Origin: an archaeon
Lineage (GTDB): Archaea > Iainarchaeota > Iainarchaeia > Iainarchaeales > JBDRCV01
DNA: 33,668 nucleotides
NCBI GenBank assembly: GCA_043821385.1
Contig: JBDRCV010000008.1
Span: 1 to 33,668 of the forward strand
Reading direction: 5' to 3'
The notes under the pieces are model-generated. The model searched no databases. It was not told the DNA's origin and saw only the letters and a program-made list of their open reading frames with translations. Shown in pieces: positions 1,539-21,191 of this stretch (position 1 is the first letter of the stretch; each line of letters opens with the position of its first letter). The translations under genes were made by a program, and so were the position numbers.

Positions 1539-1592
1539 GACAGCAAGAGAAAGTAAAAACTAGTTAAAAAAAGTATGGTTAGAAAGAAAAAA

Positions 1593-2129: not shown

Positions 2130-2164
2130 TAAGGATTCTTCATAAGAAAAAGATTTAAAGGCAT

Positions 2165-4282: not shown

Positions 4283-4305
4283 TTAAAACTCCAAAAAAAG
4301 TTATT

Positions 4306-4653
4306 TTATTTTTCTTCCTCTATTTTTCCCAGTCCATCAGAGTCAATTCGAATATTATAAGCATCTTTTATTTCAGTTAAAATGTCAGTTAACTCGTTTA
4401 CAAGCGAAACAATTTCACTCCACTTGTCTTTCTTTGTTTCAATTGCTTTACTTAAACGTTGTTTGCTTGAGTCAACAATTTTTAAATAAGAAAACTTGCT
4501 TATATCTCCGTCATCAAACCTTTTTTTCACTCCTTCACTTTCAGCTTTAATTGCTTGAGCTTCTTTTTCTAAACTCCTTAAAGATTCAACTGCCGCCACT
4601 ACAAGATTTGTTTTGTCCTCGAACTCATCTAATGCTTCAATAACATCCTTCAT
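4306..4653 (-). CDS. Small coiled-coil protein, unknown function (pilus operon member)
   Basis: 115 aa, charged heptad-like sequence with no TM segment. It sits 24 nt upstream of the ATPase gene on the same strand. Coding status is supported by operon context only. Confidence 0.5.
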   Translation of the reverse strand: MKDVIEALDEFEDKTNLVVAAVESLRSLEKEAQAIKAESEGVKKRFDDGDISKFSYLKIVDSSKQRLSKAIETKKDKWSEIVSLVNELTDILTEIKDAYNIRIDSDGLGKIEEEK

Positions 4654-4668
4654 TCATTCACCTCAAAA

Positions 4669-5187
4669 TCATGATTTCCTGATTAAAGAAGTATTACCTT
4701 TAACCAGTTTCAAATACAGTGAAAAATCATTCCCTGCATTATAATCACACTCACAAAGACTAATGTTTACATCATTTAAAAAGATTTCCTTTACCAGAGA
4801 ATTAGCATCAGTCAAGGTTCCCTGACTAACACCATTAAAATAATAACTGCATTCTTTTTGCATGAAGTTGCCTAAAACATAGCCAGCGTTAACATCAAAA
4901 GCAATAAAACAAAAAGAAGGCTCAAAAGCAGAGCGTTGAGCTTGCTCTTTAACCTTTACTCCAAAGTCAAACAAGTTAGAGTTTAAATCAAAAACTATTG
5001 GAATAGTAGTGGCAGAAGACATAGTTGTAAGGTAAACAAAATAAAACTCGTTTGAAAAATTATCTAAAAGAAAATCACTTGAATTAACAGTTGGCTGAAC
5101 GCTAATGTTAGCAGCGAAAAAAAAAGCAATAATTAAGCCAATAAAAATTAAGGCTCCAAGAATAAAAACAAAACCTTTTTCAGCCAT
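4669..5187 (-). CDS. Pilin-like protein with class III (prepilin) signal peptide
   Basis: I prefer the internal ATG at 5187 over the track start at 5244. It gives MAEKG/FVFILGALIFIGLIIAFFFAA, a short charged leader ending in KG followed by a hydrophobic helix, the same 5-residue leader as the three upstream pilins. It also gives an 8-nt overlap (ATGGCTGA) with the preceding gene. The mature part has four Cys. Confidence 0.65.
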   Translation of the reverse strand: MAEKGFVFILGALIFIGLIIAFFFAANISVQPTVNSSDFLLDNFSNEFYFVYLTTMSSATTIPIVFDLNSNLFDFGVKVKEQAQRSAFEPSFCFIAFDVNAGYVLGNFMQKECSYYFNGVSQGTLTDANSLVKEIFLNDVNISLCECDYNAGNDFSLYLKLVKGNTSLIRKS

Positions 5188-5566
5188 AACTCCACCCGTA
5201 AACCTGTAAAACTTTTGGATTGTAAGACAAAACGTTTCCTTCAAACAAGTAATTGACTACCACAGTGTTAGCGTTTGATGGCTTGGAACCATAACAAACA
5301 CCATTACTAACATCCAGTCCCTCACAAACTCTTACTTCTAATCCTAAGTCAATCATTTCCTGTAATTCTTCTTTAATTAAAGATGTTTGATGCAAAGAAA
5401 CTTTTTCCCTGAAATCTTGTTTTAACGCTAGCTCTGAAACCGTGCTCTCAATGCTTTCTTGCAAGGAATTCATTCTTGGAGTTGAAACTAATGAAGCCTG
5501 ACTGACAGTAAAAAAAACTGTAAACAATAACGCTACAGCAATTAATGCTTCAATTACTTTAATCAT
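5180..5566 (-). CDS. Small protein with N-terminal hydrophobic helix (possible minor pilin or signal-anchor protein)
   Basis: 128 aa starting MIKVIEALIAVALLFTVFFTV; there is no [KR]G leader. Its ATG overlaps the giant gene stop (ATGA at 5563-5566), implying translational coupling. Confidence 0.55.
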   Translation of the reverse strand: MIKVIEALIAVALLFTVFFTVSQASLVSTPRMNSLQESIESTVSELALKQDFREKVSLHQTSLIKEELQEMIDLGLEVRVCEGLDVSNGVCYGSKPSNANTVVVNYLFEGNVLSYNPKVLQVYGWSYG

Positions 5567-8500
5567 TTTCTTTGACTCCTGACTTTTAACTCCGAGTACT
5601 TTAATTTGCCGTCAGAGTAAAGGTAAGGAAAAGTTTCACTTTTAACACTTGCAAACCTTTCAGAAATTAAAGAACCATAAGACAAGTTAATGTCTTGTTT
5701 TTCAAACGAAAGCAAGTAATTCAAGTCACTTGAAAAAGCATTAAAGTCTGGAGTAGTAATAACCTTCAAACTTGAAATCAATGGTTTTGTAAGGTAACGA
5801 GTGTTAGTGAAAGTTTTCCCTAGGTTTGAAGGACTGTAACGGAATTTAAGTAAAGCATTAAAAGCACAGCCAATCGTAACGTTTTCATCCAGCCAAACAT
5901 CACAGTCACCGTACTTGGTTTCGTTTCCAACAGTCACAGTTTCAGGGTTTAAGACAGCACGCCTAATAGAAAAATTATCAAACCTTGCCTTGCTTCCCCT
6001 TGTAACTAACCCAATGTCTCCTGGAGGTAAAGGACTTGAATCATTAAAGTCAATCAATAAATTGTTGTCAACAAAAACTTTAATGTTGTTTTCAACCATT
6101 TTCACACTTAACTTATACCAAGTTTGAAAGTTAATGGTTGTTGAATCATTAAAGTCAAGTAATTGGAATTCAAATTGCCCAGGACCAATTTGATTTGATT
6201 TAACTAAAGCAACAGGCAAAGGGTTTGCAGGAGTAGGAGTAGTATAATTTATTTGAGCCACATAAAAAATGTTTCCTTTTCTTTGAAACTTTATTCCAAC
6301 GTTATGGTCTCCTGCAGTAGCATCTGTTTCGTCAATGTAAACGTTTGCATCAACCCAAAAATTGTTGTCTCTGACAAAGTCAACAACTGTTCCTTTTACA
6401 CTAGAAGAATTAACTTGAGTGTACTGCTTGTTAACAATTGCCCAAGAAACGTTTATTTCATCCCAGTCAATTGGGTCACCATCATCTTCATTACCATCAT
6501 CAAAGTTATCAAACGCAACCAAGGCTTTTAAAGCATTTGAATCAAAAACCGCATTACTTTTACCGTAAGCTATAGCATAATCTCTTGAAGTAGTATTAGC
6601 TGGAAGGCTTCTTTGAAGTTTAAAGAAAACATTAGAGTCAACAGAATTACAATCCATTACAATAGTATCAAGCAAACTATTACCTTTTAAGTCAAAAACT
6701 TTAACGTCATTACAGTCACTTAAAACTTTTCCTGCAGCAATCAAGGACTGCGTGTCAAAACCAACCCTGACAGAATAATTAACGTCTAATGATTCAATTG
6801 AAGAAGAAACAATTAAAGGTTTCTTGAAAGAGTAGCCAAGGTTAACCCAAGACGAATTGTTTTCATCCTCTCTCATTAAATCAATTGTTAAAGTAGTGTT
6901 GTCATCTAAAGAATTATGCAAGATTAACTGGTTTGAAGTCAAATAATTGTTGTTAGAATTGTTGTCTTGAATTAAACCATTAATAGTTGAAAAATTGCTT
7001 AATGACTGGAAATTAAATTTTGTTGGATAAGAAATTTCTAACTTGTTTTGGTCTCTTGCAACATCAAAGTAAACAAAATAATTCCTGATTTTTCTGTCAG
7101 AAGAATTCACGTCAACTAAAATGTTTAAGTCTCCAATTTTAGTTGAAGAATTGAAAGAGAATTGTGACGGCACTGACGAACAAGTGTTTGGCGAAAGCTT
7201 GTTAGCATCAAGACAAAACATTTTTCTGTCAAGACTTGAAACATTAAAGTCATCAATTGAAACTCTTGTTATAACAGTGTCAAAAGCAATAAATTTGCCA
7301 GTGCGTAATGGCACGGAATCCTGCCAGCTGCCAAGATAAGTTCCGTCACGCCACACTTTAATTAACCCGTCAGTAATTGTAATCCTGTAAAAATACTGGG
7401 TTCCAGCAATTGCAGCAGCAGCAATAATTGATTGCTCTGCTTTAACGTCATTTGAAACCTTTAAAATTGTAAGACTGTCAGCGTTCTGGTCAACAATGTA
7501 AGCGCTGTGCCCAAACCTTTTAAGAGAGTCTTGAAGGTGAGAGTAAACCATTGCATGCGTGTTAGAATCAAACTTCATTGTAAACTGTAAGTCAATGTTA
7601 GAGTGAGGAAGGTAAACGAAAGCATTAGAGTTATCATCTAAATCGCCTTGCTTTAACATTTCGTTTTCAATAAACCAGTTACCGTCACGAAAAACCCAGC
7701 CGTTAGCATCATTAAAATTATCTGTAAATTGGTCAGAATACTCTACTACTCTAATAGAGTTAGCGTCTAAAGCCCTTGAATCTGAAACCCTGCTTAAAGC
7801 TTTAGAGAAATCAATTTTAGTTTCAGCTAAAAAGTTTTGGTCAATTGTTCCAGTGTTCACACTTACAGGTAACCTGTAAAGCCATTCATTGTACAATGGC
7901 ATAACGTTAACGTCAGCAACAACTAACTGTGACTCTATTGCCCTTAAACCAATTCCACCCTTGTTTACTCCTGGATTAAAACCAGAGTCAGTTGAATCAA
8001 TATCCCAAGAACTTGACTCTGAGTCAATTGAACGCCAAACCCTAAATTTAATTGCATCTTTATCCAAATAAATTTTAGCATTATACCAAGAATTTAAAAC
8101 CATTGTCTTGTCAGCTGACGCAATAAGAGTGTAAACACCATTAACATACCTTCTGATTTCAAGGTTTCTGGAAGCTGGTTCAGGTGAAACCACAAAAGCC
8201 AAAAAGTTTTTTGAGTCAATGTAACGAACCAAAAACTCTACTTGTTTTTGGCCAACGTTTGCAACCTTGAACTTTGTCTTAAAAACATAATTAGAGTAAT
8301 TAATGTCTTCAATTGTTGCAGTATGATTTGTGTCAGTAGCTAACTCAAAATAATTACTGTCAAGCACTTGCCAGTTGCCTGAAACCTCGTTCCAGTCACC
8401 AGGATAACCATCATTAGCGTTATTGTCTTCAAACGCGTCAAAGAAAATACTGTCAGTCCACCAGTTCGCACTAAAAGTTATGCCGTTGTCATCCTTGCTT

Positions 8501-11500
8501 TGCCAGTTGTTAAACAAGGTTGGAGTAATTTCAATGTTGTTGTCTTGAGGTAACTGTAACCAGAATTCCGGTGAGTGAGAAAAGAACCTGAAAGCATAAT
8601 TAGAGTCATTTAGTTTAGCAGAAAATAAAGAGTTATCGTCTATATTAAAACTTTGAGTTAAAGGACTCCATAAAATTAATTCATTGCTTAAAGAATTTTT
8701 CAAGTAATTAATTTGAAGGTTTAAATCTAAAACGTTTATGTCAAAGAATTCATTACTAACAGTATAATCTGAACCATTTACAGCTAAATCCAAGTCAAGG
8801 CTTTTTGAAACTTTTAAGTCATCAAACAATACTTTTGACTCAATGGTTTCAAAACCAACCCCACCAGAAACAAAACTTGAATCAGTTGCAGTAACCAACT
8901 CATTGTCATCAAAAAAACAACTAATGCTTGAACTAACAGCTTTAGCTTTCAATGAATGCCAGCCATTAAAATCAAAACTTGCAAGACTAACCGGATTAGT
9001 TTCAGAACCATAATTAACTGAAACAAAATCAAGCAATGGAGTAATGTTGTTGTCAGAAGTTTCAAAAAACGCTTTAAACTGCAAGTAACGATTATTAGTT
9101 AAATTCAAATCAATAACATTAGCATCATAATAATAAGTGTTAATTGAACCATCAGGGCCAGCATAAGCAGGCCAACTAGCATTATCAGCATCAGTTCTAA
9201 ACTGGAATTTAATGTCTGCTTTTGAAGCTTGATAATGGTTCCAAATTTCTTTACCAGTTAATTCTTTTGAATAAAACTTTAAGTCATCAATTACTCCATG
9301 AAAGTTATCAGTGTTACCTCCCCAAGTAGCACCAACACCCATATCATAATTTGAACAAGTTGAAGGAACAACTGCAACAGAAGGAGTGCCGGATTGAACA
9401 ACACTTGCTTCAACTCCATTAATGTAAAGTTTTATTACTCCACCAACACTATCATAAGTTCCAGCAAGAAAATTCCACTTATTAACATCAAGCTTTTTAG
9501 ATGAACCAACCCAAACATCTGCGACCCCTGCACCTGAACTCACAACCCAGTAAACGTTTGAATCATTCTGCAAGTACAAGAAAGTGTGGTCTGTTTGATC
9601 ATAAATCATTCTCCACTCCCTGTTTCCCGGGTCAGTCCAAGAAGCATCAAAAGATTTAATCCAAACTTCAAAAGAAAACTCTGCACCGCCAAGAAAATCA
9701 TAACAAGACATAAAGTTATCGTCACCATCAAACATTAAACCAGAACTGATTCCATTCCTTCCAGTAACCCAAGTAGGCTTGTTAGCTGGATTACCTGTAC
9801 CACCAAGATTTCCTGTTCTAGCATTAAAACCAGCATCCTTACTTGTCACTCCAGTATTTTCATCAAAACGATAAAAAGCTATAAAGTTTTCATCAAAAAC
9901 ATCTGCCTGCCCGTAAAGATACCATTCATTAAAATCAAGAGTATTCCAAGTAACACCAGCAGTCCCAGAATCAAGTACAGTGGATTCAAGGTAACCAGAT
10001 TGACGCCAATTAAACGTAGTGTTAACGTCCTTGAATTCACTTACTCCGTTAACGTCAATTCTTTTATGAGCGTTCTGGTCTTCAATTACAAAAGTTTGCT
10101 TGTCAAAAAAAGTAACGTTAACGTCATACAAGCCATTATAATCCACACCACAATGAATGTCATTAGAACTGCCTTTCTCATAAACATCTCTAGAACAAAC
10201 CAAATTTGACTGCTGGTCAAAAACCCTAACTTTAGCACCCAAATCATGGTTTAAATCACCTAAACCAAGATCATTTTGATCTAACCTTACAACTAAATAA
10301 TTTAAGTCATCTCTAGAATTCCTGTAAAAATAATTATTGTTTCCTCCAACAAACAAGTCTAAATCGCCGTCATTATCATAATCTCCCCAAGCAAACGCGG
10401 CACCCTTGTTAGCACTTGAAATGCCAACCAAAGAACTAACATCAGTGAAAACATCACTGCCATCATTCCTCCATAACGCGTCCTTTTTTCCAACAACTAA
10501 ATCCAAGTCACCGTCATTATCATAATCGCCCCACGCACACTCTAAATAATTCCAAGCAGTCAAAGCTTTAACGTTAGTGAAAGACAATCCACCATCATTC
10601 CTAAAAATATTCGTGTTACCATAAGCAGCTAAACCAACATCAATATCCCCATCATTATCATAGTCACCCCAGCAAGCATCAGTTGCTGCAGCATTAAACT
10701 TTATCGGGTTAGTGATTTCAACAAAAGTTCCATTATCATTCCTAAAAAGCCTGTTAGTATTACTAACCCAGATTGGCAGAAAAATATCCATGTCGCCATC
10801 AGAATCAATGTCAACAAAACTAACTTCATAAGAAACATTACCATCATTTAAACCAACATGCTCTGCAGTAACATCAGAAAATTCTCCATTCAAGTCATTC
10901 CTAAACAACTGGTTTGGAGTATTAGCATTGTCACCAGTTAAATACAAATCAATATCTCCATCATTATCATAATCCCCCCAAGCCGCAGCACGATTATAGT
11001 TAGCTGTCTGACCGCCAACTTTTGCAGTACCAGTAACTTCAGTAAAAGTACTGTCACCATTATTTCGGAAAAGCTTGTTTGCAGCACCACGAATAATTAA
11101 ATACACGTCCTGATCCCCGTCATTATCATAATCAACCCAGTTAGCTTCCTGACCACCTTGAGCATTAGCAAGCCCAGCACTCACAGCAATATTAGTGAAA
11201 TTAAAGTTACCGTCATTCCTGTAAAGTTCGTCAGCTCTACCACCATAAACTACATGCAAATCTAAATCCCCGTCATTATCAAAGTCAACCCAGTTAACGC
11301 CTTGCTGCATTCCATTCTTGTTAGCCGCTTTAATGTTAACTCCAGCACCAATCGCTGTTTCCTCAAAATTACCATCCACATCCAATCCAAGCATTGCAGA
11401 ATCCTTAAAAACAACTAAATTCAAGTTAACGTCAGTGTCAGCTTCAAAGTCAGCGAACTCATCTTGAGTTAAGTCACCTGAAACACCACGAAAATTACTT

Positions 11501-12198
11501 TTCACTCCACCAGAATATTTTACTAAATCATACTCTAAAGCATTATTAATTTCACAAGCATAATAATTGCTTGAATCCTGCAAACGAAAAACAAGCCCTA
11601 AACCATTAACGTCAACAGTGTTAGGCTTAAAAATAGTTTCAACAAACAAGTCACTCCAATCACCATTAACATAACTTAAACCGTTAACATCAGAGTTAGA
11701 CTGAAAATAATAACGATTGCTTGCAGTCCAAGAACCAGAACTCTCAACCCAAGTCAAAGGTTTTGAATCATTGATTGCTTCATCTTCAAAGTTTTCCATT
11801 ACATCAACTACTCCGTCCTGCGAGAAAGCTAAAAGATTAGAATCCAAGAAAAACAATTGAGTTAAATTATCTCTGGTTGGATCAATCAAAGAATACAAGG
11901 AATTGCTTACAATTGAATAATACTGGTTTGAAACAATGTTATCATCACTGCCAAAAGATAACTGCACAGGGTAAAAAGCATTACAATCGTAAATAGAATT
12001 GTTACAGTAAGGAGCTAAATTCAACTGGTAAACGTTAGCCTTAACCGGCACGTCCTGAAAAGCCTGAATGTAAAGCGATTCAGTTAAAGCAACATCAAAA
12101 GATTGTCGTTCAGGAAGAAACTGCGGTAAAGCAATCAAAACAAACACTACAGCAAACAAAAAAATCATACTGCCAACAACCCAATCAATATAATGCAC
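5563..12198 (-). CDS. Giant (2211 aa) membrane-anchored extracellular protein: FG-GAP beta-propeller + ASPIC/UnbV-like + LamG + multiple concanavalin/DUF1080-like jelly-rolls; putative pilus-associated adhesin
   Basis: Uninterrupted 6.6-kb ORF. A GTG start at 12198 lies 8 nt after an AGGAGGG SD (12207-12213). The N-terminal hydrophobic helix is WVVGSMIFLFAVVFVLIAL. Seven FG-GAP/VCBS repeats (W[GV]DYDNDGD[LI]DL...[LF]FRNDG) are followed by an ASPIC-like segment. A LamG (Laminin_G_3-like) domain ends in HGVIDDLKFYSKELTGKEIW (9241-9300). At least four jelly-roll units end in ...FDDLKV, ...VADVNV, ...IDDFNV and ...FDNFSI. N-x-S/T sequons are numerous. Confidence 0.85.
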   Translation of the reverse strand: MHYIDWVVGSMIFLFAVVFVLIALPQFLPERQSFDVALTESLYIQAFQDVPVKANVYQLNLAPYCNNSIYDCNAFYPVQLSFGSDDNIVSNQYYSIVSNSLYSLIDPTRDNLTQLFFLDSNLLAFSQDGVVDVMENFEDEAINDSKPLTWVESSGSWTASNRYYFQSNSDVNGLSYVNGDWSDLFVETIFKPNTVDVNGLGLVFRLQDSSNYYACEINNALEYDLVKYSGGVKSNFRGVSGDLTQDEFADFEADTDVNLNLVVFKDSAMLGLDVDGNFEETAIGAGVNIKAANKNGMQQGVNWVDFDNDGDLDLHVVYGGRADELYRNDGNFNFTNIAVSAGLANAQGGQEANWVDYDNDGDQDVYLIIRGAANKLFRNNGDSTFTEVTGTAKVGGQTANYNRAAAWGDYDNDGDIDLYLTGDNANTPNQLFRNDLNGEFSDVTAEHVGLNDGNVSYEVSFVDIDSDGDMDIFLPIWVSNTNRLFRNDNGTFVEITNPIKFNAAATDACWGDYDNDGDIDVGLAAYGNTNIFRNDGGLSFTNVKALTAWNYLECAWGDYDNDGDLDLVVGKKDALWRNDGSDVFTDVSSLVGISSANKGAAFAWGDYDNDGDLDLFVGGNNNYFYRNSRDDLNYLVVRLDQNDLGLGDLNHDLGAKVRVFDQQSNLVCSRDVYEKGSSNDIHCGVDYNGLYDVNVTFFDKQTFVIEDQNAHKRIDVNGVSEFKDVNTTFNWRQSGYLESTVLDSGTAGVTWNTLDFNEWYLYGQADVFDENFIAFYRFDENTGVTSKDAGFNARTGNLGGTGNPANKPTWVTGRNGISSGLMFDGDDNFMSCYDFLGGAEFSFEVWIKSFDASWTDPGNREWRMIYDQTDHTFLYLQNDSNVYWVVSSGAGVADVWVGSSKKLDVNKWNFLAGTYDSVGGVIKLYINGVEASVVQSGTPSVAVVPSTCSNYDMGVGATWGGNTDNFHGVIDDLKFYSKELTGKEIWNHYQASKADIKFQFRTDADNASWPAYAGPDGSINTYYYDANVIDLNLTNNRYLQFKAFFETSDNNITPLLDFVSVNYGSETNPVSLASFDFNGWHSLKAKAVSSSISCFFDDNELVTATDSSFVSGGVGFETIESKVLFDDLKVSKSLDLDLAVNGSDYTVSNEFFDINVLDLNLQINYLKNSLSNELILWSPLTQSFNIDDNSLFSAKLNDSNYAFRFFSHSPEFWLQLPQDNNIEITPTLFNNWQSKDDNGITFSANWWTDSIFFDAFEDNNANDGYPGDWNEVSGNWQVLDSNYFELATDTNHTATIEDINYSNYVFKTKFKVANVGQKQVEFLVRYIDSKNFLAFVVSPEPASRNLEIRRYVNGVYTLIASADKTMVLNSWYNAKIYLDKDAIKFRVWRSIDSESSSWDIDSTDSGFNPGVNKGGIGLRAIESQLVVADVNVMPLYNEWLYRLPVSVNTGTIDQNFLAETKIDFSKALSRVSDSRALDANSIRVVEYSDQFTDNFNDANGWVFRDGNWFIENEMLKQGDLDDNSNAFVYLPHSNIDLQFTMKFDSNTHAMVYSHLQDSLKRFGHSAYIVDQNADSLTILKVSNDVKAEQSIIAAAAIAGTQYFYRITITDGLIKVWRDGTYLGSWQDSVPLRTGKFIAFDTVITRVSIDDFNVSSLDRKMFCLDANKLSPNTCSSVPSQFSFNSSTKIGDLNILVDVNSSDRKIRNYFVYFDVARDQNKLEISYPTKFNFQSLSNFSTINGLIQDNNSNNNYLTSNQLILHNSLDDNTTLTIDLMREDENNSSWVNLGYSFKKPLIVSSSIESLDVNYSVRVGFDTQSLIAAGKVLSDCNDVKVFDLKGNSLLDTIVMDCNSVDSNVFFKLQRSLPANTTSRDYAIAYGKSNAVFDSNALKALVAFDNFDDGNEDDGDPIDWDEINVSWAIVNKQYTQVNSSSVKGTVVDFVRDNNFWVDANVYIDETDATAGDHNVGIKFQRKGNIFYVAQINYTTPTPANPLPVALVKSNQIGPGQFEFQLLDFNDSTTINFQTWYKLSVKMVENNIKVFVDNNLLIDFNDSSPLPPGDIGLVTRGSKARFDNFSIRRAVLNPETVTVGNETKYGDCDVWLDENVTIGCAFNALLKFRYSPSNLGKTFTNTRYLTKPLISSLKVITTPDFNAFSSDLNYLLSFEKQDINLSYGSLISERFASVKSETFPYLYSDGKLKYSELKVRSQRK
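10340..11300 (-). repeat. Seven tandem coding repeats (FG-GAP blades) inside the giant gene
   Basis: The plus-strand DNA motif CC(A/G)TCATTATCATA(A/G)TC...CCCCA recurs near 11271, 11120, 10960, 10795, 10650, 10510 and 10370. The period is about 140-160 nt and each copy encodes D(N/S)DGD calcium-loop motifs. Confidence 0.75.
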
Positions 12199-12242
12199 TT
12201 TAAATACCCTCCTTTAAAAGAATAATTAAACTAATTATTAAA

Positions 12243-12761
12243 TTAACTGTAAGACGGTTTTTGCACTCTGATTTTAATTGTTTTAATTCCCCCGCTAAAA
12301 GAATTGTAATCAGCAAACAAAACATGTTGTCCTGAAAAAACCATTAAATTAGAGTCAGTTAAAATGTTAATGTCAGAACCAGTGAAATTGAGTCCGATTG
12401 AAAGCTGGTTGCCTGAACGAGAGTAAAAAATTCTTCCAACTACAGCAGAATAATTTTCGTCAATGATTTCACTTGAAACATGCTGTTTTAAAGTAATTGA
12501 ATCAGTATCAGAGTTAATGTCAATAAAACCATTCCTTAACTCAAATGAAACGCTTTTAGAGCTGCCGACACTTAAGTCTGCAACGTCTGTAATCACGGAA
12601 TTAATTTCAGTTACCAAGTCTTTTGCGTGCTCAAAGTCTCGAACATCATTCAATTTCTCAAAGTAAGGCAAGGCCAAAAAAGCAATAGAGAAAACAATAA
12701 TAACACTTAAAACAAACATGAATACAGCAATAACCAACTGGTTTACTCCTTTTTCATTCAA
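12243..12761 (-). CDS. Archaeal type IV pilin (class III signal peptide), paralog 3
   Basis: 172 aa starting (M)NEKG/VNQLVIAVFMFVLSVIIVFSIAFLA. The start must be TTG at 12761 (no in-frame ATG precedes the helix), overlapping the upstream stop as TTGA. It shares internal blocks with the other two paralogs (SVSFELRNGFIDINSDTDSITL; LSIGLNFTGSDINIL). Confidence 0.8.
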   Translation of the reverse strand: MNEKGVNQLVIAVFMFVLSVIIVFSIAFLALPYFEKLNDVRDFEHAKDLVTEINSVITDVADLSVGSSKSVSFELRNGFIDINSDTDSITLKQHVSSEIIDENYSAVVGRIFYSRSGNQLSIGLNFTGSDINILTDSNLMVFSGQHVLFADYNSFSGGIKTIKIRVQKPSYS

Positions 12762-13264
12762 GTCTTTCTCACTCTCACTAACGCCTTACTAGTTACCGAA
12801 TTAAAACCATTATAGTCAAGAATGATGTGATTGAATCCAGGAAACAAAGAAATGTTGTCGTCTAAAATTAAATCAACTCCCAAAGCATTAAAGTCAACAC
12901 TTAAAACAGCAAAATTGTCTGAAACACTTACAGAAAAGTTTTCATCAGAGAAAGTTGAATTGTTTGCAAGAAAACCTTCACCAACATTAATTTTGCTTGA
13001 CATGGTTTCAATGTCAGCATTAAAGTCAATTGAAAAATCCCTGAAAGTTAAATCTAATTGCTTGCTGGAAGAAGGCATTGACGCAACAGACAAAACCTCA
13101 ACTTTAATTAACTGTAAAGTATTTTTAGAGTTCTGGAATTCCGGAAGTTTCTGCCATTCCTGCACTTGATACAAGCCTTGAGTTAAAACAATTGAAATTA
13201 AAACAACAGCAAGAATTAACAAAAGCAATCCAGAAAAAATTGCCGAAACACCTTTATTATACAT
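12758..13264 (-). CDS. Archaeal type IV pilin (class III signal peptide), paralog 2
   Basis: 168 aa starting MYNKG/VSAIFSGLLLLILAVVLISIVL. A GGAGGA SD lies inside the end of the upstream gene. Paralog blocks are QLDLTFRDFSIDFNADIETM and LSVDFNALGVDLIL. Confidence 0.8.
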   Translation of the reverse strand: MYNKGVSAIFSGLLLLILAVVLISIVLTQGLYQVQEWQKLPEFQNSKNTLQLIKVEVLSVASMPSSSKQLDLTFRDFSIDFNADIETMSSKINVGEGFLANNSTFSDENFSVSVSDNFAVLSVDFNALGVDLILDDNISLFPGFNHIILDYNGFNSVTSKALVRVRKT

Positions 13265-13272
13265 AATAAACT

Positions 13273-13776
13273 TTATCCTCCAATCCTCTTAACGCTAACC
13301 CAAACAATTCCAGGCTGACTTCTTTCCTTTTTTACCACTAACTCATGCAATCCCTTGTTTAAAAACAAGTTGTTATCAAACCCAATAACAGAGTTAGAGT
13401 AATCCAAACCCAAAGTTAAACGATTACCAGTCCTTGAAATAAAAAAGTTTGTTTCACTATAATTAGAGTCAATGTCAAAATAACCCGCATTAATGTAATG
13501 ATGCAAGACTACAAGATTGTAATCAGAGTCAACGTTTAAATCAAAGTCCCTTAAATCAATTGAAATTAATTTGCTTGAACCACTTTCAAGCAATGAAACT
13601 TCATTAATGTTTTCCTCTAACCCGCGCAAAATGTTTGCAGCAATTTCAAAGTCAATAGTGTTCTGTGTTTCCTCCAAAAAAGGAAAACCAATCTGCGTTG
13701 CAACAGCAATCGAAACAACCGCAATAAATAACAACAACAAACTTGAAAGAAAAACATTAACTCCTCGCTCTAACAT
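13273..13776 (-). CDS. Archaeal type IV pilin (class III signal peptide), paralog 1 (first gene of operon)
   Basis: 167 aa starting MLERG/VNVFLSSLLLLFIAVVSIAVA. Paralog blocks are LISIDLRDFDLNVDSDYNLVVL and LTLGLDYSNSVIGF. Confidence 0.8.
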   Translation of the reverse strand: MLERGVNVFLSSLLLLFIAVVSIAVATQIGFPFLEETQNTIDFEIAANILRGLEENINEVSLLESGSSKLISIDLRDFDLNVDSDYNLVVLHHYINAGYFDIDSNYSETNFFISRTGNRLTLGLDYSNSVIGFDNNLFLNKGLHELVVKKERSQPGIVWVSVKRIGG

Positions 13777-14433: not shown

Positions 14434-14541
14434 GATTATAAAAAACATTCTTTTTTGGAAAAAACAAAGGCTTTTTAAACTAAAACAAGCTTAAATTATA
14501 ATAGATTTTTGTTAGAATTTAATATAATTATTGGTGGTAAA

Positions 14542-14988
14542 ATGAGTGAAAAAGAAGTAAAAGAAAAAGTTATAGAAGTTAAAGAAGAAGATAAAAAAGA
14601 AGTTAAAGAAGAAATTAAAGAAGAAGACATTGATGACTTGGAAGACGAAAAAACTGACGAATTAGTTGTAGAGGAAGGGTTTGCTTTCCCTAAAACAACT
14701 GTTGTAAGGTTAATGAGGAAGCATCTGGAACCAGGAAAACAAATTAAAGGAATAGTTAAAAGAGAAATGAATAAATGGATGGAAAAAATGGTTGTCAGAG
14801 TTACAAGCAAAATGAACGAACACCCTTACACTTACGTTGACTACGGAATGTTCAAAGAAGCAATTGAAACATACGAAAAAATTGAAGACATTGAACAAGA
14901 AAAAATAAGAATTATTAAGTACTTGGAAAAAATTAAAGCAGACTGCGATAGTCTAGCTAGAGACGTTGACAGAAAATTTGAAGTCTGA
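14542..14988 (+). CDS. Small histone-fold-like protein with acidic/lysine-rich N-terminal tail (tentative)
   Basis: ATG at 14542 follows a GGTGG SD (14533-14537); the track start at 14509 has none. The core FPKTTVVRLMRKHLEPGKQIKGIVKREMNKWMEKMVVRVTSKMNEHPYTYVDYGMFKEAIETY reads as helix-loop-long helix-loop-helix, like a histone fold (alpha1-L1-alpha2-L2-alpha3). It is preceded by about 45 residues of K/E/D-rich sequence. Confidence 0.3.
   Translation: MSEKEVKEKVIEVKEEDKKEVKEEIKEEDIDDLEDEKTDELVVEEGFAFPKTTVVRLMRKHLEPGKQIKGIVKREMNKWMEKMVVRVTSKMNEHPYTYVDYGMFKEAIETYEKIEDIEQEKIRIIKYLEKIKADCDSLARDVDRKFEV
14925..14988 (+). repeat. Direct repeat copy 1 (64 bp) = 3' end of the histone-fold-like gene including its TGA
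   Basis: GGAAAAAATTAAAGCAGACTGCGATAGTCTAGCTAGAGACGTTGACAGAAAATTTGAAGTCTGA matches 15968-16031 at 62 of 64 positions (mismatches at 14934 and 14953). Confidence 0.9.
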
Positions 14989-15097
14989 ACACAATCCCGC
15001 AGCCCTGCCAAAGAAACTTCATATTCTTGTTTAAAGAAATTACTTCTTTCTCCACATCATTTATGGCAGTCTTATTTCTAGAATTTCAAAAGAAAAG

Positions 15098-15107
15098 CTT
15101 TTAAATA
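15098..15107 (+). promoter_or_regulatory. Candidate TATA box for the PIN-like/UPF0175-like pair
   Basis: CTTTTAAATA is centred about 26 nt upstream of the ATG at 15129. No SD is present, giving leaderless-type spacing. Confidence 0.3.
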
Positions 15108-15128
15108 GTTTACATTATAATATATTGT

Positions 15129-15656
15129 ATGACAAACTTGCTTGTAGTATCTGATAGTAGTTCATTGATTCTTGCCACAAAAGCAGGATTACTTGAAGTT
15201 GTCTGCAAGGAATTCACAGTTGAAATCCCGGAAACAGTATTTGAGGAAACAGTGATTGCTGGCAAAAAACTGCAAAAAACAGACGCATTCAAAATAGAGG
15301 AAGCAATTCAAGAAAACAAAATACTTGTAAAGAAAGTAAAGCCAAGAAAAGAAAAAAAAGAAGAACAATGGTTCAAAGAATTCAATATTGATAAAGGAGA
15401 AGAAGAAGCCATAAAACTTTACATTCAAACAAAAGCAGACCTTTTGCTTGTTGATGATAAGCAGGCAATAAATACTGCAAGATTGCTGGAAATAAACTGG
15501 GTGACAGTTCCCACATTAATAGTGGAATTCACAAAAAAGCAAAAAATAACAAAAAAACAAGCTTTAGAGTCATTAAGAACAGTGCAAGAAGAAGGAAGAT
15601 ACAAACTTGACTTCATACTTGAAGCCATGAATGAAATTGAAAAAATTAACGGGTGA
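15129..15656 (+). CDS. PIN-like nuclease-fold protein (DUF3368/COG2405-like), putative toxin
   Basis: 175 aa. The N-terminus LLVVSDSSSLILATKAGLLEVV and the C-terminal LLLVDDKQAINTARLLEINWVTVPTLIVE resemble the DUF3368 PIN-like family that pairs with UPF0175. Confidence 0.6.
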   Translation: MTNLLVVSDSSSLILATKAGLLEVVCKEFTVEIPETVFEETVIAGKKLQKTDAFKIEEAIQENKILVKKVKPRKEKKEEQWFKEFNIDKGEEEAIKLYIQTKADLLLVDDKQAINTARLLEINWVTVPTLIVEFTKKQKITKKQALESLRTVQEEGRYKLDFILEAMNEIEKING

Positions 15657-15660
15657 TAAA

Positions 15661-15978
15661 ATGAGAACAGAACTAGTTTCAATAAGACTTCCAAAAGAAG
15701 AAGTTAAAGTCATAATTGAAAGAGCAAAAGAAGAACACACTGACAAAACAACAGCCATAAGAAGAACTCTTGCATTAGGTGCAAAACAATACTTGCTCAA
15801 CAAAGCATTCGAAGAATACAAACAAGGCAAAATAAGCCTTGGAAAAACCGCTGAAACAACAGGATTAAGTCTTTGGGAAATAATGGAAGAAGCAAAAACA
15901 AGAAACATACCAAACCCACTGACAAAACAAGAATTCAAAGAAGGACTAAAAAACCTGGAAAAAGTCTGGAAAAAATAA
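15661..15978 (+). CDS. UPF0175 (COG2886)-like putative antitoxin
   Basis: ATG at 15661 lies after a GGTGA SD and 4 nt after the PIN-like gene stop. The sequence ...KAFEEYKQGKISLGKTAETTGLSLWEIMEEAKTRNIP is typical of UPF0175. Its TAA stop (15976-15978) lies inside repeat copy 2 and is created by one of the two repeat mismatches. Confidence 0.6.
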   Translation: MRTELVSIRLPKEEVKVIIERAKEEHTDKTTAIRRTLALGAKQYLLNKAFEEYKQGKISLGKTAETTGLSLWEIMEEAKTRNIPNPLTKQEFKEGLKNLEKVWKK

Positions 15979-16031
15979 AAGCAGACTGCGATAGTTTAGC
16001 TAGAGACGTTGACAGAAAATTTGAAGTCTGA
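15968..16031 (+). repeat. Direct repeat copy 2 (64 bp), orphan duplicate of a gene 3' end
   Basis: See copy 1. Sequence identity stops exactly after the TGA in both copies. Confidence 0.9.
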
Positions 16032-16055
16032 TAAAGCAACCGAAAACCTTTTAAG

Positions 16056-16073
16056 AACTATAGCACTATAGTT
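16056..16073. promoter_or_regulatory. Perfect 8-bp inverted repeat (AACTATAG-CA-CTATAGTT), candidate VapB operator
   Basis: Read directly from the sequence. It lies between a TATA-like CTTTTAAG (about 16047-16054) and the SD/ATG of the VapB-like gene (16088). Confidence 0.4.
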
Positions 16074-16087
16074 TGTGGGTGATAAGT

Positions 16088-16297
16088 ATGGTTACTACCA
16101 CTATTCAAATTGAAGCCCCAACAAAAGAATTGTTGAACGAACTTAAAACAAGCTTTTCAACAAAAACTTACGATGAAGTAATAAGAATTCTTGTAAAAAA
16201 GAAAACCAAGTCAATGTATGGAAAGCTAGGTAAAGGTAAGAAGATATCGGCAACTGAAATGATGAAAGGATTACGGGACAAGCATGACAGATACTAG
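16088..16297 (+). CDS. vapB: VapB-type antitoxin (DUF217/PF02697-like)
   Basis: ATG at 16088 lies 7 nt after a GGTGA SD; the track TTG at 16073 was rejected. MVTTTIQIEAPTKELLNELKTSFSTKTYDEVIRILVKKK matches the archaeal small-antitoxin pattern. It overlaps the downstream PIN gene by 14 nt. Confidence 0.65.
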   Translation: MVTTTIQIEAPTKELLNELKTSFSTKTYDEVIRILVKKKTKSMYGKLGKGKKISATEMMKGLRDKHDRY

Positions 16298-16664
16298 CAT
16301 TTTCTTAGATTCTAGTATTTGGTTAGGTTACTTTTTGGGAAATATTGAAAAAACAAAAGAAATAATTGAATCAGAAGAAACTATATTATTTACTTCAATT
16401 ATTTCAATTCACGAAGTATTCAAAAGACTAAACAAACAAAAACAAAACTCTTGGAAAGCAGTAAAATTCATTGAAGAAAACAGTATAATAGTCAATTTAA
16501 ACAAAAATATTGCAATAACTGCTGTTAAAAACTGTGAAAAATACAAGTTGCATACAACTGATTCATTAATTTACTCAAGCTCTGAAGAAATGAAAACAAT
16601 ATTTATAACTGCTGATAACGACTTCAAAAAAACACATAACACAATAATAATAAAGACAAAGTAA
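16284..16664 (+). CDS. vapC: PIN-domain ribonuclease toxin VapC
   Basis: 126 aa. The acidic PIN residues are in the expected order (IFLDSS..., ...SIHEV..., ...TTDSLIY..., ...ITADNDF). Confidence 0.8.
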   Translation: MTDTSIFLDSSIWLGYFLGNIEKTKEIIESEETILFTSIISIHEVFKRLNKQKQNSWKAVKFIEENSIIVNLNKNIAITAVKNCEKYKLHTTDSLIYSSSEEMKTIFITADNDFKKTHNTIIIKTK

Positions 16665-17732
16665 TCACCAGCCTTCCGGCGCGTTATCTTTTTTTGAATG
16701 AAAGTCTTTAACATACTGGTCGTTATAGTAAGCCCAAACTTCAGTTACAGGGTAATCAGCAAAACGAAAGTGAGTGAAAAAAAAGCCAGCAGACTTATTT
16801 AATTTTTGTTCTATATCACTCCAACTAGGCCCTGAAGTAGGATCCAAGTTCAACCATTCACCATCAACTTTTAACTGTGCCCAAGCATGCCCGCCAACTT
16901 CACCGTCAAAATTAACTTCTCCTAAAACAACTCTGACATCAACTGCACTAACACCCATTGCACGGTATAATGAAACTAAAGTGTTAGCTTGTTCAGAACA
17001 ATCACTTGCCACCGACGGCTTAACAGGATTTGAAGGCATACTGGGAGTTTGAGTCAAGAATTCTTGAGGAGTAAGCCATTTTTCTGATTGATTGTTCAAA
17101 GTTTGCTCTGAAACCCAAACCCAACTACGAGCAGAATACTGGTAAGCTGAAGAAAAATCATTAAATTTACTGGCAAGAGAAACAATTGCTTGAGCTTCAG
17201 GAGTAACAAAAGTTTGATAACGAGAAATTTGCCCGCCTTCAGGATCAGGTTCAAAGTCAGGGTTGTTTTCTTTCAACCAGTCATCTAGTTCATCCTTGCT
17301 TAACAAGTCTCTTTCTTTAAGAGTTTTAATTAACCCTGATTCCTGAATTTTTTGCAAGGCAAACGCTTTAACTTCATCTTTTAAACCAGAAATAAAGGTT
17401 TTAGCTTCAACATGATCTAAAACCCTCAAAACACAAGGTTTGGATTCCAAACTTTTTGCCTCACTTTCCTTTAATTCCAGAACCCACCAGTAATCTTCTC
17501 CAGTAAGAGAAGCCATCAACTGGTCTTGACTAAAATAAACTCCTTCCCTAGAACAATCACGGTCAACTTGAACAAGGTAAGCGTCTAAAGGATCTTCCGA
17601 GGGTTCAATTGGAGGAAGGCCAGGGTTATTGTTTGGAGGGTTTATTGGTTGTTCTGGTTGAACACAACCAGAAATAAGAATTACTAGAATTAAAGTCAGA
17701 ACCACGACAATTTTATTAATCTTATAATTCAT
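16665..17732 (-). CDS. Transglutaminase-like (Cys-His-Asp) domain lipoprotein
   Basis: 355 aa. Signal peptide with a lipobox (VILISGC). The C-terminal core DCSEQANTLVSLYRAMGV...GGHAWAQLKVDGEWLNLDPTSG carries the C, H, D arrangement of the transglutaminase-like protease fold. Its stop codon directly abuts the vapC stop, with 0 nt between them. Confidence 0.7.
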   Translation of the reverse strand: MNYKINKIVVVLTLILVILISGCVQPEQPINPPNNNPGLPPIEPSEDPLDAYLVQVDRDCSREGVYFSQDQLMASLTGEDYWWVLELKESEAKSLESKPCVLRVLDHVEAKTFISGLKDEVKAFALQKIQESGLIKTLKERDLLSKDELDDWLKENNPDFEPDPEGGQISRYQTFVTPEAQAIVSLASKFNDFSSAYQYSARSWVWVSEQTLNNQSEKWLTPQEFLTQTPSMPSNPVKPSVASDCSEQANTLVSLYRAMGVSAVDVRVVLGEVNFDGEVGGHAWAQLKVDGEWLNLDPTSGPSWSDIEQKLNKSAGFFFTHFRFADYPVTEVWAYYNDQYVKDFHSKKDNAPEGW

Positions 17733-17782
17733 TCTATATACAAAGAGTTAATTACCTTTTTAAACCTTTTTTTGTTACATAT

Positions 17783-17819
17783 TATAAAGTTTAATAAAGT
17801 TTATAAAGTTTATAAAATT
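17783..17819. repeat. Four tandem TATA-like units (TATAAAGTT / TAATAAAGTT / TATAAAGTT / TATAAAATT) in the divergent promoter region upstream of the thermosome gene
   Basis: Read directly from the sequence; the period is 9-10 bp. A further TTTTTTAAAC box at about 17826-17836 and a GGAGGTG SD at 17847-17853 follow. Confidence 0.7.
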
Positions 17820-17859
17820 TAGTAATTTTTTTAAACGCTTTTTATTGGAGGTGTGTTTT

Positions 17860-19515
17860 GTGACACAACAGCAAATGAATCAACCAGTCGTATTCTTGAC
17901 TGATGGAAGCAAGCGAGTTAGAGGAAGGGACGCGCAAAGAATAAACATTATGATAGCAAAAGCAGTAGCTAATGCAGTAAAGTCTACTCTTGGACCTAAA
18001 GGCATGGATAAAATGCTTGTAGATGATTTAGGAGACGTTACGATTAGTAATGATGGAGCAACAATTTTAAGTGAAATGAGCATTGATCATCCAGCAGGAA
18101 AAATGATGGTTGAAGTTGCAAAAACTCAAGACGATGAAGTTGGAGACGGAACAACAACAGCAGTAGTTATTGCTGGAGGATTACTTGATAAAGCTGAAAG
18201 ATTGCTTGACGATGAAGTTCATCCATCAATAATAATTAATGGTTACCGGATTGCAGCAAAAAAAGCTAAAGAATTTTACACAGAAATATCAGAAAACATT
18301 AACGTTAAAGACATTGAAAAAATCAAGAATATTGCTTTGACTTCAATGACTGGAAAAAGTGCTGAATCAGCTGTCGAGTTAGCTGACCTAGTTGTTAAAG
18401 CAGTAATACAAGTTGCTGAAGAAAAAAACAATAAAACAATAATTGACTTGGATCAAATTAAAGTTGAAAAGAAAGGCGGAGCAAGCCTTGTAGAAAGCAA
18501 ACTAATTGAAGGAGTAGTAATTGACAAGGAAAGAGTGCATTCTGGAATGCCAAGAATTGTAAAAAACGCTAAAATTGCTTTAATTGACGCAGCACTAGAA
18601 ATTAAAGGCCCTGAAACTGATGCAAAAATCCAGATTACTTCACCAGACCAATTGCAAGGATTCTTGGATCAGGAAGAAGAAATGTTGAGAAGCATGGTTG
18701 CAACCATCAAGAAATCTGGTGCAAACGTTTTAATCTGCCAGAAAGGAATTGATGACGTAGCACAACATTTTTTGGCACAAGAAGGAATTTTTGCTGTTCG
18801 AAGAGTCAAAAAAAGTGACATGGATAACCTTGCAAAAGCAACCGGAGCAAAAGTACTGTCAAGAATTAAAGATTTAACTGAAAAAGACGTTGGAAATGCA
18901 GAAATAGTTGAAGAAAGAAAAATTGCCGGAGACGCAATGACTTTTGTTGAAGGCTGTAAGAACCCTAAAGCAGTAACCATTTTATTGCGCGGCGGTTCAG
19001 AACACGTTTTAGATGAAGCAGAAAGAGCATTACAAGACGCTTTAGGTTCAACTACAACAGCAATTAAAACAGGAAAAATTGTTGCTGGCGGCGGAAGCTG
19101 TGAAATGGAAGTAAGCATAAAGTTAAGAGAATTTGCTAAAAGTGTTGGTGGAAGAGAACAACTGGCAATTGAAGCTTTTGCTGAAACACTTGAAATAATT
19201 CCAAAAACTTTAGCTGAAACAGCTGGAATGGACTCAATTGACACTTTGGTTGCTTTAAGGTCAAAGCATTCAAGCAAAGACGGTAAAACAATTGGAGTAA
19301 ACGTTTACACTGCCAAACTAGAAGACATGCTAAAAAACAATGTCATTGAACCATTAAACACTAAAACTCAAGCAATTACTTCAGCTTCAGAGGTAGCGGA
19401 AATGATTCTAAGAATTGATGACATTATTGCAGGAACAAGTTCAAGCAAAGGCAGTGGCGGAATGCCACCAGGCATGCCTCCAGGCATGGGCGGAATGCCT
19501 CCAGGAATGATGTAA
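17860..19515 (+). CDS. ths: Thermosome subunit (group II chaperonin, Cpn60/TCP-1 family)
   Basis: Motifs seen: [29 protein letters not shown] and [10 protein letters not shown] (ATP-binding), plus a C-terminal [19 protein letters not shown] tail. I prefer the GTG start at 17860, 6 nt after the GGAGGTG SD. The ATG at 17875 is an alternative; the track TTG at 17845 overlaps the SD. Confidence 0.95.
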
Positions 19516-20620: not shown

Positions 20621-20815
20621 ATGGAAGCAATTACTAAAACTAGGCGAATTGGTGGTTCTATTGTTACAACTATTCCAAAAGAAGTGGCAGAAAAACTGAA
20701 ATTAAAAGAAAATGAGTTAATCGAAATTGAAATAAAAAGAGTTAAAAAAAGCTTTTTTGGAGCTATAAAAGGAATTCCTTCATTTAAAGAAGATGATAGG
20801 TTTGACAGAGCATAA
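20621..20815 (+). CDS. vapB: AbrB/SpoVT/MazE-fold antitoxin (VapB-like)
   Basis: 64 aa. RRIGGSIVTTIPKEVAEKLKLKENELIEIEI is a typical swapped-hairpin AbrB motif. A GGTGG SD lies upstream and a TTTAAATATA box about 40 nt upstream. Confidence 0.75.
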   Translation: MEAITKTRRIGGSIVTTIPKEVAEKLKLKENELIEIEIKRVKKSFFGAIKGIPSFKEDDRFDRA

Positions 20816-21191
20816 TTTGTTAATGGATTCAAGCGCTTGGATAGAATACTTTAATGGAACAAAACCAGGGCAAAAAGTTAAAGAACTAATTGAAAACGAA
20901 AAATATTTGGTCTTAAACCCAAATATTGTTGCAGCCGAAGTTACAAGCAAGATAGCAAGATTTGGAGGCAATGTTGAAAAAGCTATTACTGCAATAAAAA
21001 CTCTTTCAATTCCCGTAAGAGAAGACCAAGAACTTTTTTTTGAAGCAGGAAAACAACATTTTCACTTAAAGAAAAAATTCAAGAATATTAGTTTAGCAGA
21101 TTCAATTATAAAAACAATTGCCGAGAAAAATAACGCAGTAATTGTAACAAAAGACAGGCATTTGAATGGAAAGAAAACAATACTAATTTAA
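20793..21191 (+). CDS. vapC: PIN-domain ribonuclease toxin VapC
   Basis: 132 aa. Motifs are LLMDSSAWIEYF..., ...AAEVTSK..., ...LADSIIKTIAE... and ...VTKDRHL. The start may instead be the ATG at 20823 (MDSSAW...). Confidence 0.8.
   Translation: MIGLTEHNLLMDSSAWIEYFNGTKPGQKVKELIENEKYLVLNPNIVAAEVTSKIARFGGNVEKAITAIKTLSIPVREDQELFFEAGKQHFHLKKKFKNISLADSIIKTIAEKNNAVIVTKDRHLNGKKTILI

Follow-up and report, generated by a model that had tools for sequence, protein, structure and literature searches.

Integrative elements are inserted by integrases at the 3′ ends of genes, which gives rise to attL and attR sites, and their integrase-less derivatives include cis-mobilisable elements and elements accreted in tandem at tRNA genes. 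Integron cassettes and clusters of attC sites lacking integron-integrases (CALINs), including those of archaea, are made up of small one- or two-gene units, in many cases with toxin-antitoxin or methyltransferase genes, whose arrays are frequently devoid of an integrase (PMC9668308). The displaced 3′ ends found in Vibrio type VI secretion system (T6SS) loci and in Rhs loci have been attributed to homology-facilitated illegitimate recombination (PMC5361080), and the pairing of COG2405 and UPF0175 proteins has been described by Matelska et al. (PMC5499597). Here, a stretch of 33,668 nt (contig JBDRCV010000008.1, positions 1 to 33,668 of the forward strand; hereafter the window) has been analysed, which is assigned to Iainarchaeota (Diapherotrites, DPANN) by its orthologues. 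A cassette of about 0.98 kb, comprising a putative promoter/operator, a PIN-fold DUF3368 toxin and an antitoxin with ribbon-helix-helix (RHH) and UPF0175 domains, is located immediately behind the stop codon of a histone-fold-like (HF) gene. A displaced copy of the end of this same gene is found directly behind the cassette, followed by different DNA. The evidence presented here speaks for homologous plus illegitimate recombination, rather than for a dedicated att site in the HF gene, as the origin of this arrangement.

The window is similar to 'C-terminal displacement' arrays, such as the Vibrio T6SS effector-immunity arrays and Rhs orphan ends (PMC5361080), in that a module would be anchored by homology to the upstream gene and joined illegitimately at its other end, leaving a displaced 3′ end behind the module without a dedicated recombinase, a process whose repetition leads to arrays. 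It differs in that an autonomous toxin-antitoxin cassette takes the place of a toxin tip plus its immunity gene, in that the anchor is unrelated to the cargo, in its DPANN host and in that the donor allele has not been seen. To our knowledge, this displacement route has not been described in DPANN archaea. With integrative elements the locus shares direct repeats of a target 3′ end that bracket the insert, the intact target gene and, elsewhere, the occurrence of the cassette family at tRNA-Tyr 3′ ends, but it differs from them in the small size of the unit, only about 1 kb, in a target, the HF tail, that is not used recurrently and in a boundary that coincides with the coding end of the cassette; nor could an integrase be found.

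The tRNA-Tyr arrays of related genomes, described below, resemble integron cassettes and CALINs because stacked units are separated by a repeated recombination site. However, the repeat between cassettes is a 3′ fragment of tRNA-Tyr with conserved arms, and in the window it is the end of a protein-coding gene; in addition, the cassette would not be promoterless, as it carries its own conserved TATA-like box and putative operator. When attC-like folding was considered, the HF tail and the repeat of locus L041 (L-numbers designate loci fetched from other genomes or metagenomes for comparison) folded no better than shuffled sequences (z -1.5 to -0.4), and inspection of both revealed no GTTRRRY (R''/R') boundary. 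Concerning the gene content, the cassette shares with the COG2405/UPF0175 pairs (PMC5499597) and with the PADLOC candidate system PDC-S70 the PIN fold, the conserved acidic residues, the UPF0175 partner and the organization as adjacent genes on the same strand, whereas it differs in the RHH domain added to the N-terminus of UPF0175. The toxin gene is the first one in all loci considered here.

Duplication of the HF gene end

A direct repeat of 65 nt was found at 14924-14988 (copy 1) and 15967-16031 (copy 2), with a spacing of 1043 and 63 identical positions out of 65, the mismatches being T14934/A15977 and C14953/T15996. The preliminary description of this DNA had reported 62 identities in a 64-nt repeat from 14925; that repeat is real, and one further base (T) is common to both copies. 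The 54-nt core of the repeat, searched with at most 3 mismatches, is present in the window in these two copies only (0.00 expected from shuffles), and the local alignment of the copies has a score of 120, compared with a maximum of 36 in the null distribution obtained with shuffled sequence. The longest exact run shared by the copies is 35 nt. Beyond the TGA the two copies diverge, with ACACAATC after the stop codon of copy 1 and TAAAGCAA after that of copy 2; in longer extracts, copy 1 continues as ACACAATCCCGC... and copy 2 as TAAAGCAACCG... The earlier statement that identity stops exactly at the stop codon in both copies is borne out by these different continuations.

As delimited by the repeat alignment, copy 1 (14924-14988, + strand) consists of the last 21 codons and the TGA of the HF gene. 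The peptide encoded by copy 1, LEKIKADCDSLARDVDRKFEV, agrees with a tail, LEKIKADCD.L...V.RKF, that is common to about 40 orthologues, and copy 1 is therefore the true 3′ end of a conserved gene; the assignment of the repeat to the end of the flanking histone-fold-like gene was thus right. The HF gene itself (14542-14988, + strand) is an intact open reading frame (ORF) coding for 148 amino acids from ATG, with a TTG at 14509 as an alternative start, in agreement with the proposal that the gene is preserved through its duplicated end. The protein has a weak Pfam match to CBFD_NFYB_HMF (E 0.004, below the cut-off) and about 160 homologues, some of which have been named 'histone H3/H4' by JGI. 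A protein search in 5.8 billion clusters (15 billion sequences) revealed that its nearest relatives are 61-73% identical and that the window protein is alone in its own cluster.

The unambiguously HF-derived part of copy 2 comprises 53 nt (15979-16031, + strand), is non-coding in this position and has a sole mismatch to copy 1, which is synonymous (CTA/TTA, Leu). An argument that both copies had evolved as coding sequences, based on three differences at or near the repeat that are all synonymous in the HF frame, was dropped, as the left 12 nt of copy 2 probably are cassette sequence; for the same reason a single informative mismatch is left. No third, degenerate HF tail was found at the DNA or peptide level in the rest of the 2.86-kb interval that separates the HF gene from the next conserved gene. 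The content previously listed between the copies, that is, 140 nt of non-coding DNA and a PIN-like/UPF0175-like pair, was found again, the two genes coding for 175 and 105 amino acids.

In the run GTCTGGAAAAAATAAAAGCAG (15964-15984), across an A-rich stretch, the HF-tail frame is located at -1 relative to the antitoxin frame. A frameshift at this run would fuse the antitoxin to a 17-residue HF tail, which is pure speculation.

Insertion into the HF-thermosome interval

In about 18 related species the next gene after HF, 27-350 bp away, encodes a thermosome and is regarded as the ancestral neighbour (17845-19515 in the window, + strand). In the window, these two genes are separated by 2.86 kb (14989-17844) that contain the cassette, copy 2, a VapB/VapC pair and a transglutaminase-like gene, and the cassette is therefore an insertion. 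This adjacency in relatives supports the earlier claim that the cassette has been inserted where a conserved gene ends, the uninterrupted HF-thermosome site being seen at the family level. In the nearest relatives (loci L001, L002, L004, L020 and L050) the interval ranges from 1.5 to more than 6 kb and is filled with unrelated genes. The interval is thus a variable hot spot, and all the DNA between the HF and thermosome genes of the window is inserted. The genes occupying it in these nearest relatives include RelE/ParE-like and other small toxin-antitoxin-like pairs and a RIO-type kinase.

Exact-protein look-ups with the HF and toxin proteins gave no other contig, a degenerate DNA pattern of the HF tail had no match in 185,579 species genomes or in viral contigs, and no conspecific of this metagenome-assembled genome was present in any collection searched.

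The toxin-antitoxin cassette

The left end of the cassette, ACACAATCCCGCAGCCCTGCC (14989-15009, + strand), matches the arm that follows a tRNA-Tyr 3′-end copy in cassette arrays of other Iainarchaeota. It is followed by a spacer of about 88 nt (15010-15097, + strand) that has no relative in any fetched locus, since blastn-short against all loci gave chance matches only and the spacer appears as an insertion in the MAFFT alignment. The putative promoter/operator (15098-15128, + strand) consists of the TATA-like CTTTTAAATAG and a near-palindrome terminated by the start codon, GTTTACATTATAATATATTGTA. Such a box and its accompanying near-palindrome (CTTTTAAATAGTTTACATTATAATATATTGTATG) are kept directly upstream of the toxin ATG in all the cassette loci, and because of this conservation in every homologous locus the cassette would have its own promoter and a probable operator.

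The first gene (15129-15656, + strand) encodes a 175-residue COG2405/DUF3368-type PIN-fold protein. Its AlphaFold2 model has a pLDDT of 90.6, and the best Foldseek matches of the model were Pyrococcus VapC4 and other PIN proteins (E 1e-4). Residues D9, E40 and D110 are invariant among 28 homologues, and the toxin profile matches PDB 2mdt, the COG2405 representative (PMC5499597). A precomputed assignment to PF11848 (PF11848.14, DUF3368) is listed for the window toxin and all 44 homologues, although our own hmmscan at E<=0.1 did not return PF11848. The second gene (15661-15978, + strand) encodes a 105-residue antitoxin in which Pfam identifies UPF0175 (1.2e-08; 35 bits, with a cut-off of 27.9) and RHH_1 (2.2e-04).

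Both genes are on the same strand with a gap of 4 nt, both match the PADLOC candidate system PDC-S70, and wherever the locus is not truncated by the end of a contig, the antitoxin gene comes directly after that of the toxin. On these grounds the pair is predicted to be a type II toxin-antitoxin system of the COG2405/DUF3368 PIN-like plus UPF0175 kind, with toxicity and neutralisation as predicted functions. The GC and GC3 values of the cassette are those of the host genes, and its source was therefore compositionally close. The search against Rfam found no RNA family in the region except for a sub-threshold CRISPR-DR6 match at 15676-15722, inside the antitoxin coding sequence; this single-copy match (29.5 bits, with a gathering score of 39) was taken as most likely due to chance.

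Left and right joints of the cassette

At the left joint the TGA of the HF gene is directly followed by ACACAATCCCGC, the beginning of the cassette left end. When ACACAATCCCGCAGCCCTGCC was compared by eye with ACACAATCACGCCGGACGGCAAAAG, the arm found after the tRNA-Tyr copy in loci L039, L041 and L047, 18 of 25 positions were identical, and both were placed in the same columns by MAFFT. The 12-mer ACACAATCNCGC is present once in the window, at 14989, the expected number being 0.01. As this left arm is that found after the tRNA-Tyr copy in arrays, the origin of the cassette is tied to such an array, and the window unit is built like an array unit in which the HF tail replaces the repeat containing tRNA-Tyr.

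The right joint is located in the block TGGAAAAAATAA (15967-15978, + strand), a sequence with which the antitoxin gene ends and copy 2 begins. Fourteen antitoxin homologues end in TGGAAA plus a stop codon; thirteen of them have the ending ...TGGAAAT[AG]A (WK*) and the remaining one, L056, has ...GCCTGGAAAAAATAA (WKK*), so that its antitoxin end is exactly TGGAAAAAATAA, the same as in the window. Judged from these endings, TGGAAAAAATAA at 15967-15978 is probably the own end of the antitoxin gene. The preliminary description had considered that the mismatch T14934/A15977 created the TAA stop of this gene; the ending of L056 and those of the other 13 homologues speak against this view, the TAA at 15976-15978 probably being the native antitoxin stop. 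The HF gene has TGGAAAAAATTAA at 14924, which matches TGGAAAAAATAA, and the right joint would therefore be a microhomology (10 nt exact, 12/13). The sequence TGGAAAAAAT(A/T)AA is common to the cassette end and the HF gene, and the length of the microhomology is 6-13 nt depending on the native end that is considered. Only 13 ten-mers are common to the HF gene and the cassette, and it is thus unlikely that the right joint falls on one of them by chance.

Related cassettes and tRNA-Tyr arrays in other Iainarchaeota

A single-sequence search was not sufficient to recover further cassette loci, and the counts given here were obtained with alignment-based searches, which revealed 12 cassette loci in species genomes and 15 in metagenomes, some of them overlapping, with about 24 distinct loci. 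The check for the same cassette elsewhere, suggested previously, has therefore been positive: a discrete unit from promoter to stop codon is present in about 24 other Iainarchaeota loci. Neither an HF gene nor a thermosome gene was found near any of these approximately 24 loci, and no cassette relative turned up in viral contigs.

In about nine loci the cassette is placed by or between copies of TCCGGGAGGCGGGA, which corresponds to the T-arm and the 3′ strand of the acceptor stem of tRNA-Tyr. Locus L045 has an intact tRNA-Tyr gene (3648-3721) and, 2.2 kb downstream, a 39-nt copy of the tRNA end; Rfam finds the intact gene in this locus and misses the partial copies. In L042, just to the left of the cassettes, a tRNA-Tyr gene is found that is interrupted by an intron of about 150 nt. 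This gene (L042:3593-3813), with its unusually long intron after the anticodon, was missed by both ARAGORN and Rfam, and L047 seems to be similar.

Seven copies of a repeat of about 80 nt are present in L041, each one composed of an arm of about 25 nt of the CCACAAACCACTTACC type, about 33 nt of the tRNA end and ACACAATCACGCCGGACGGCA. Between these repeats, PemK/MazF-type pairs, a YhaV-like pair, two methyltransferases and a DUF3368/UPF0175 pair are found, and L070 and L077 have arrays of the same kind. A loose pattern of the array junction, applied to all genomes, gave mostly chance matches in unrelated bacteria, with only L070, L077, L079 and L088 being relevant.

Integron-like arrays are located beside tRNA-Tyr at L041:740-5462, L042:3593-5665, L045:3648-5965 and L047:1440-2452, and also in L054, L059, L063, L067, L070 and L077. 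Their cassettes contain one or two genes with their own promoters (PemK/MazF-type, YhaV-like, PIN, Fic/DOC, DUF3368/UPF0175 and methyltransferase genes), and the array repeat of about 80 nt corresponds to the last 33 nt or so of tRNA-Tyr plus conserved arms. A search for integrases in the fetched flanks of the arrays, which were short, was negative, and no description of tRNA-Tyr cassette arrays was found in the literature searched.

Two further loci mirror the architecture of the window with other host sequences duplicated. In L044, the cassette is flanked by a duplication of about 70 nt with 76% identity (2154-2222 and 3126-3195), which comprises the start codon and the first 22 or so codons of the downstream gene, the upstream copy being an orphan 5′ fragment; the amino acid differences between the copies look conservative in our own reading of the two N-termini. 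In L049, direct repeats of about 120 nt with about 68% identity (4823-4946 and 5846-5962) flank the cassette, and both copies start at CAATAA, which in one copy is the stop region of the upstream gene and in the other that of the antitoxin gene.

Proposed mechanism and alternative explanations

We give about an even chance to the reading that homologous plus illegitimate recombination moved an array-derived cassette behind the HF stop codon. The order of events and the enzymes in the following account are deduced from what was observed, namely the duplication, the insertion, the cassette family in its other contexts and the microhomology. The cassette would have its source in the tRNA-Tyr-linked arrays of Iainarchaeota, and its target would have been the ancestrally short HF-thermosome spacer. 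The incoming DNA would have carried the HF 3′ end (HF-TGA-ACACAATC...) already joined to the cassette, either as a related allele or as a small circle closed by microhomology. On one side recombination would have occurred through HF homology, and on the other side an illegitimate join would have placed the antitoxin end TGGAAAAAATAA on TGGAAAAAATTAA, at the TGGAAAAAAT microhomology located 65 nt before the HF stop. A joint placed upstream of the HF stop would cause the last 53-65 nt of the HF gene to be duplicated, with one tail copy completing the HF gene and the other one remaining as a non-coding relic behind the cassette. The same product could be obtained by homology-facilitated illegitimate recombination, by Campbell insertion of a microhomology-closed circle or by a two-step template switch during replication, and no dedicated recombinase would be needed in any case. 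A conservative recombination needs incoming DNA with the HF tail already joined to ACACAATC...; otherwise, the duplication is replicative. An allele with the HF TGA joined straight to TAAAGCAACC would be the empty one. This route would explain the microhomology, the window without an integrase and the lack of a second tail at the other HF loci, and the host-like GC and GC3 of the cassette are consistent with it. Loci L044 and L049, where the cassette is flanked by duplications of other host DNA, also count in its favour.

Several observations weigh against recombination of this kind. The left joint is located exactly at both the array-type cassette boundary and the HF stop, with a microhomology of at most 1 nt, a precision that suggests a site-specific cut, of which it is more typical, at some earlier step. 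The native end of the window antitoxin is taken from its homologues, and if this end were TGGAAATAA the microhomology would fall to about 6-8 nt. With one informative mismatch between the HF-derived copies, a divergence between donor and recipient is undemonstrable. Neither a donor allele (HF joined to the cassette without duplication) nor a strain-level empty site was found in the collections, which hold no conspecific, and we know of no documented case of homology-facilitated illegitimate recombination in DPANN archaea.

The preliminary description had interpreted the locus as a site-specific integration with attL/attR ends. The insertion and the kept gene stand, and att-like copies of tRNA-Tyr do exist elsewhere, but the part that makes the HF tail a recombinase att site is not supported: a second tail is missing from all 40 other HF loci, and the right joint falls on microhomology. 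In its present form this explanation, which we consider unlikely, would invoke a small mobilisable element whose attP contained an HF 3′ end and which was integrated by a tyrosine or serine recombinase acting in trans, with copy 1 as attL and copy 2 as attR. Direct repeats that bracket the cassette with an identity ending at the stop codon would be expected from it, and it would also fit about nine loci in which members of the cassette family adjoin att-like copies of the tRNA-Tyr 3′ end or have one on either side, the constant boundaries of the repeats in multi-cassette arrays and the left joint of the window, which is placed at an array cassette boundary. Nevertheless, neither the window nor the fetched array flanks yielded an integrase. 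The absence of an integrase or transposase inside the element, already claimed, was confirmed between the repeats, and in the whole 33.7-kb window no integrase, IntI-like gene or transposase was found among the ORFs scanned against Pfam (most ORFs of at least 90 aa). On inspection the HF tail has no evident similarity to the tRNA-Tyr core, and the array recombinase is therefore not expected to recognise it; the repeat has no significant single-strand hairpin, and the HF tail has not been reused at any of the 40 other HF loci. Furthermore, the left edge of the supposed attP homology corresponds to 10-13 nt of the coding end of the cassette itself, which an att site leaves unexplained, and a right joint placed on microhomology characterises illegitimate recombination rather than the use of a pre-formed attP. 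A transposon with target-site duplication does not agree with the findings either, because no terminal inverted repeats link the cassette ends and no transposase was found.

A replicative target duplication by an insertion machinery of another kind, with staggered cuts 50-120 nt apart that are filled in, much like the duplication of repeats during CRISPR adaptation, was considered rather improbable. According to this explanation, repeated use of tRNA-Tyr would build the arrays and the HF gene would be an off-target, so that arrays and off-site cases would be unified, and it is in line with the similar sizes of the duplications at four kinds of host sequence (65 nt in the window and about 80, 70 and 120 nt in the L041 array, L044 and L049, respectively), with arrays that grow beside the tRNA-Tyr gene and with a cassette-specific part that always extends from promoter to stop codon. 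No candidate enzyme was found, however, microhomology at the right joint is not expected from cut-and-fill, and the copies in L044 and L049 are only about 68-76% identical, a divergence that, together with the conservative differences in L044, suggests two alleles and not a fresh duplication. A broader version, on which we would place a tentative and fairly low probability, is an undescribed cassette system of Iainarchaeota in which promoter-bearing units stacked at tRNA-Tyr would owe their movement to a recombination activity, trans-acting or of the host, by which 50-120 nt of any target are duplicated, the window being a recent off-site insertion. Little probability was also assigned to a relic of a larger structure, in which a second HF copy or a larger element was reduced by a deletion between the antitoxin-end TGGAAAAAAT and the same 10-mer in the second HF gene, leaving 53 nt. 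The microhomology at the left edge of copy 2, an identity ending at the stop, as would be found in two gene copies with different flanks, and the synonymous character of the single HF-derived mismatch are compatible with such a relic, but no related genome has two HF genes or an HF-carrying element, two events are needed (duplication or acquisition and then deletion) and the array-type boundary directly after the first copy is not explained. Finally, the contig comes from a metagenome, and two strain variants or a loop in the assembly graph could have been joined through the repeat. An artefact of this type is very improbable, since two mismatches separate the copies and the longest exact match between them falls short of the final k-mer sizes that are usual in common metagenome assemblers, the junction of the cassette and copy 2 shares only about 10 nt with the context of copy 1, which makes a chimeric join implausible, and the same architecture is present in independent assemblies (L041, L044, L045/L057 and L049).

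Other genes in the window

Downstream of copy 2, a second toxin-antitoxin pair (16088-16664, + strand) is formed by a VapB-like gene (16088-16297) and a PIN VapC gene (16284-16664), with Pfam matches to PIN (3e-15) and, weakly, to VAPB_antitox. It is followed on the opposite strand by the transglutaminase-like gene (16665-17732, - strand; Pfam Transglut_core), which had no tblastn match in any HF locus of the relatives. Another PIN gene is found at 20793-21191, about 1.3 kb past the thermosome gene, so that three PIN-type toxins are located within 6 kb. On the other side of the HF gene, the region 666-13776 constitutes a type IV pilus-like locus with T2SSF-like and T2SSE-like genes. Three genes of about 170 aa with hydrophobic N-termini and no Pfam match were taken as pilin-like, and a 2,211-aa protein with repeated WGDYDNDGDLD motifs is also encoded in this locus.

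Conclusions

Toxin-antitoxin modules are among the most mobile genes of prokaryotes, and the movement of a bare two-gene module without its own recombinase is rarely visible. Here both joints are legible, one as an array-type boundary and the other as microhomology in the stop region of the antitoxin gene, in a 65-nt repeat with two mismatches. The integron-like tRNA-Tyr arrays merit a study of their own. The locus supports a route in which a short homology to a conserved host gene and an illegitimate joint would be enough to relocate a module while the host gene remains intact; it also points to two variable hot spots in the small genomes of DPANN archaea, namely the tRNA-Tyr locus and the spacer between the HF and thermosome genes.

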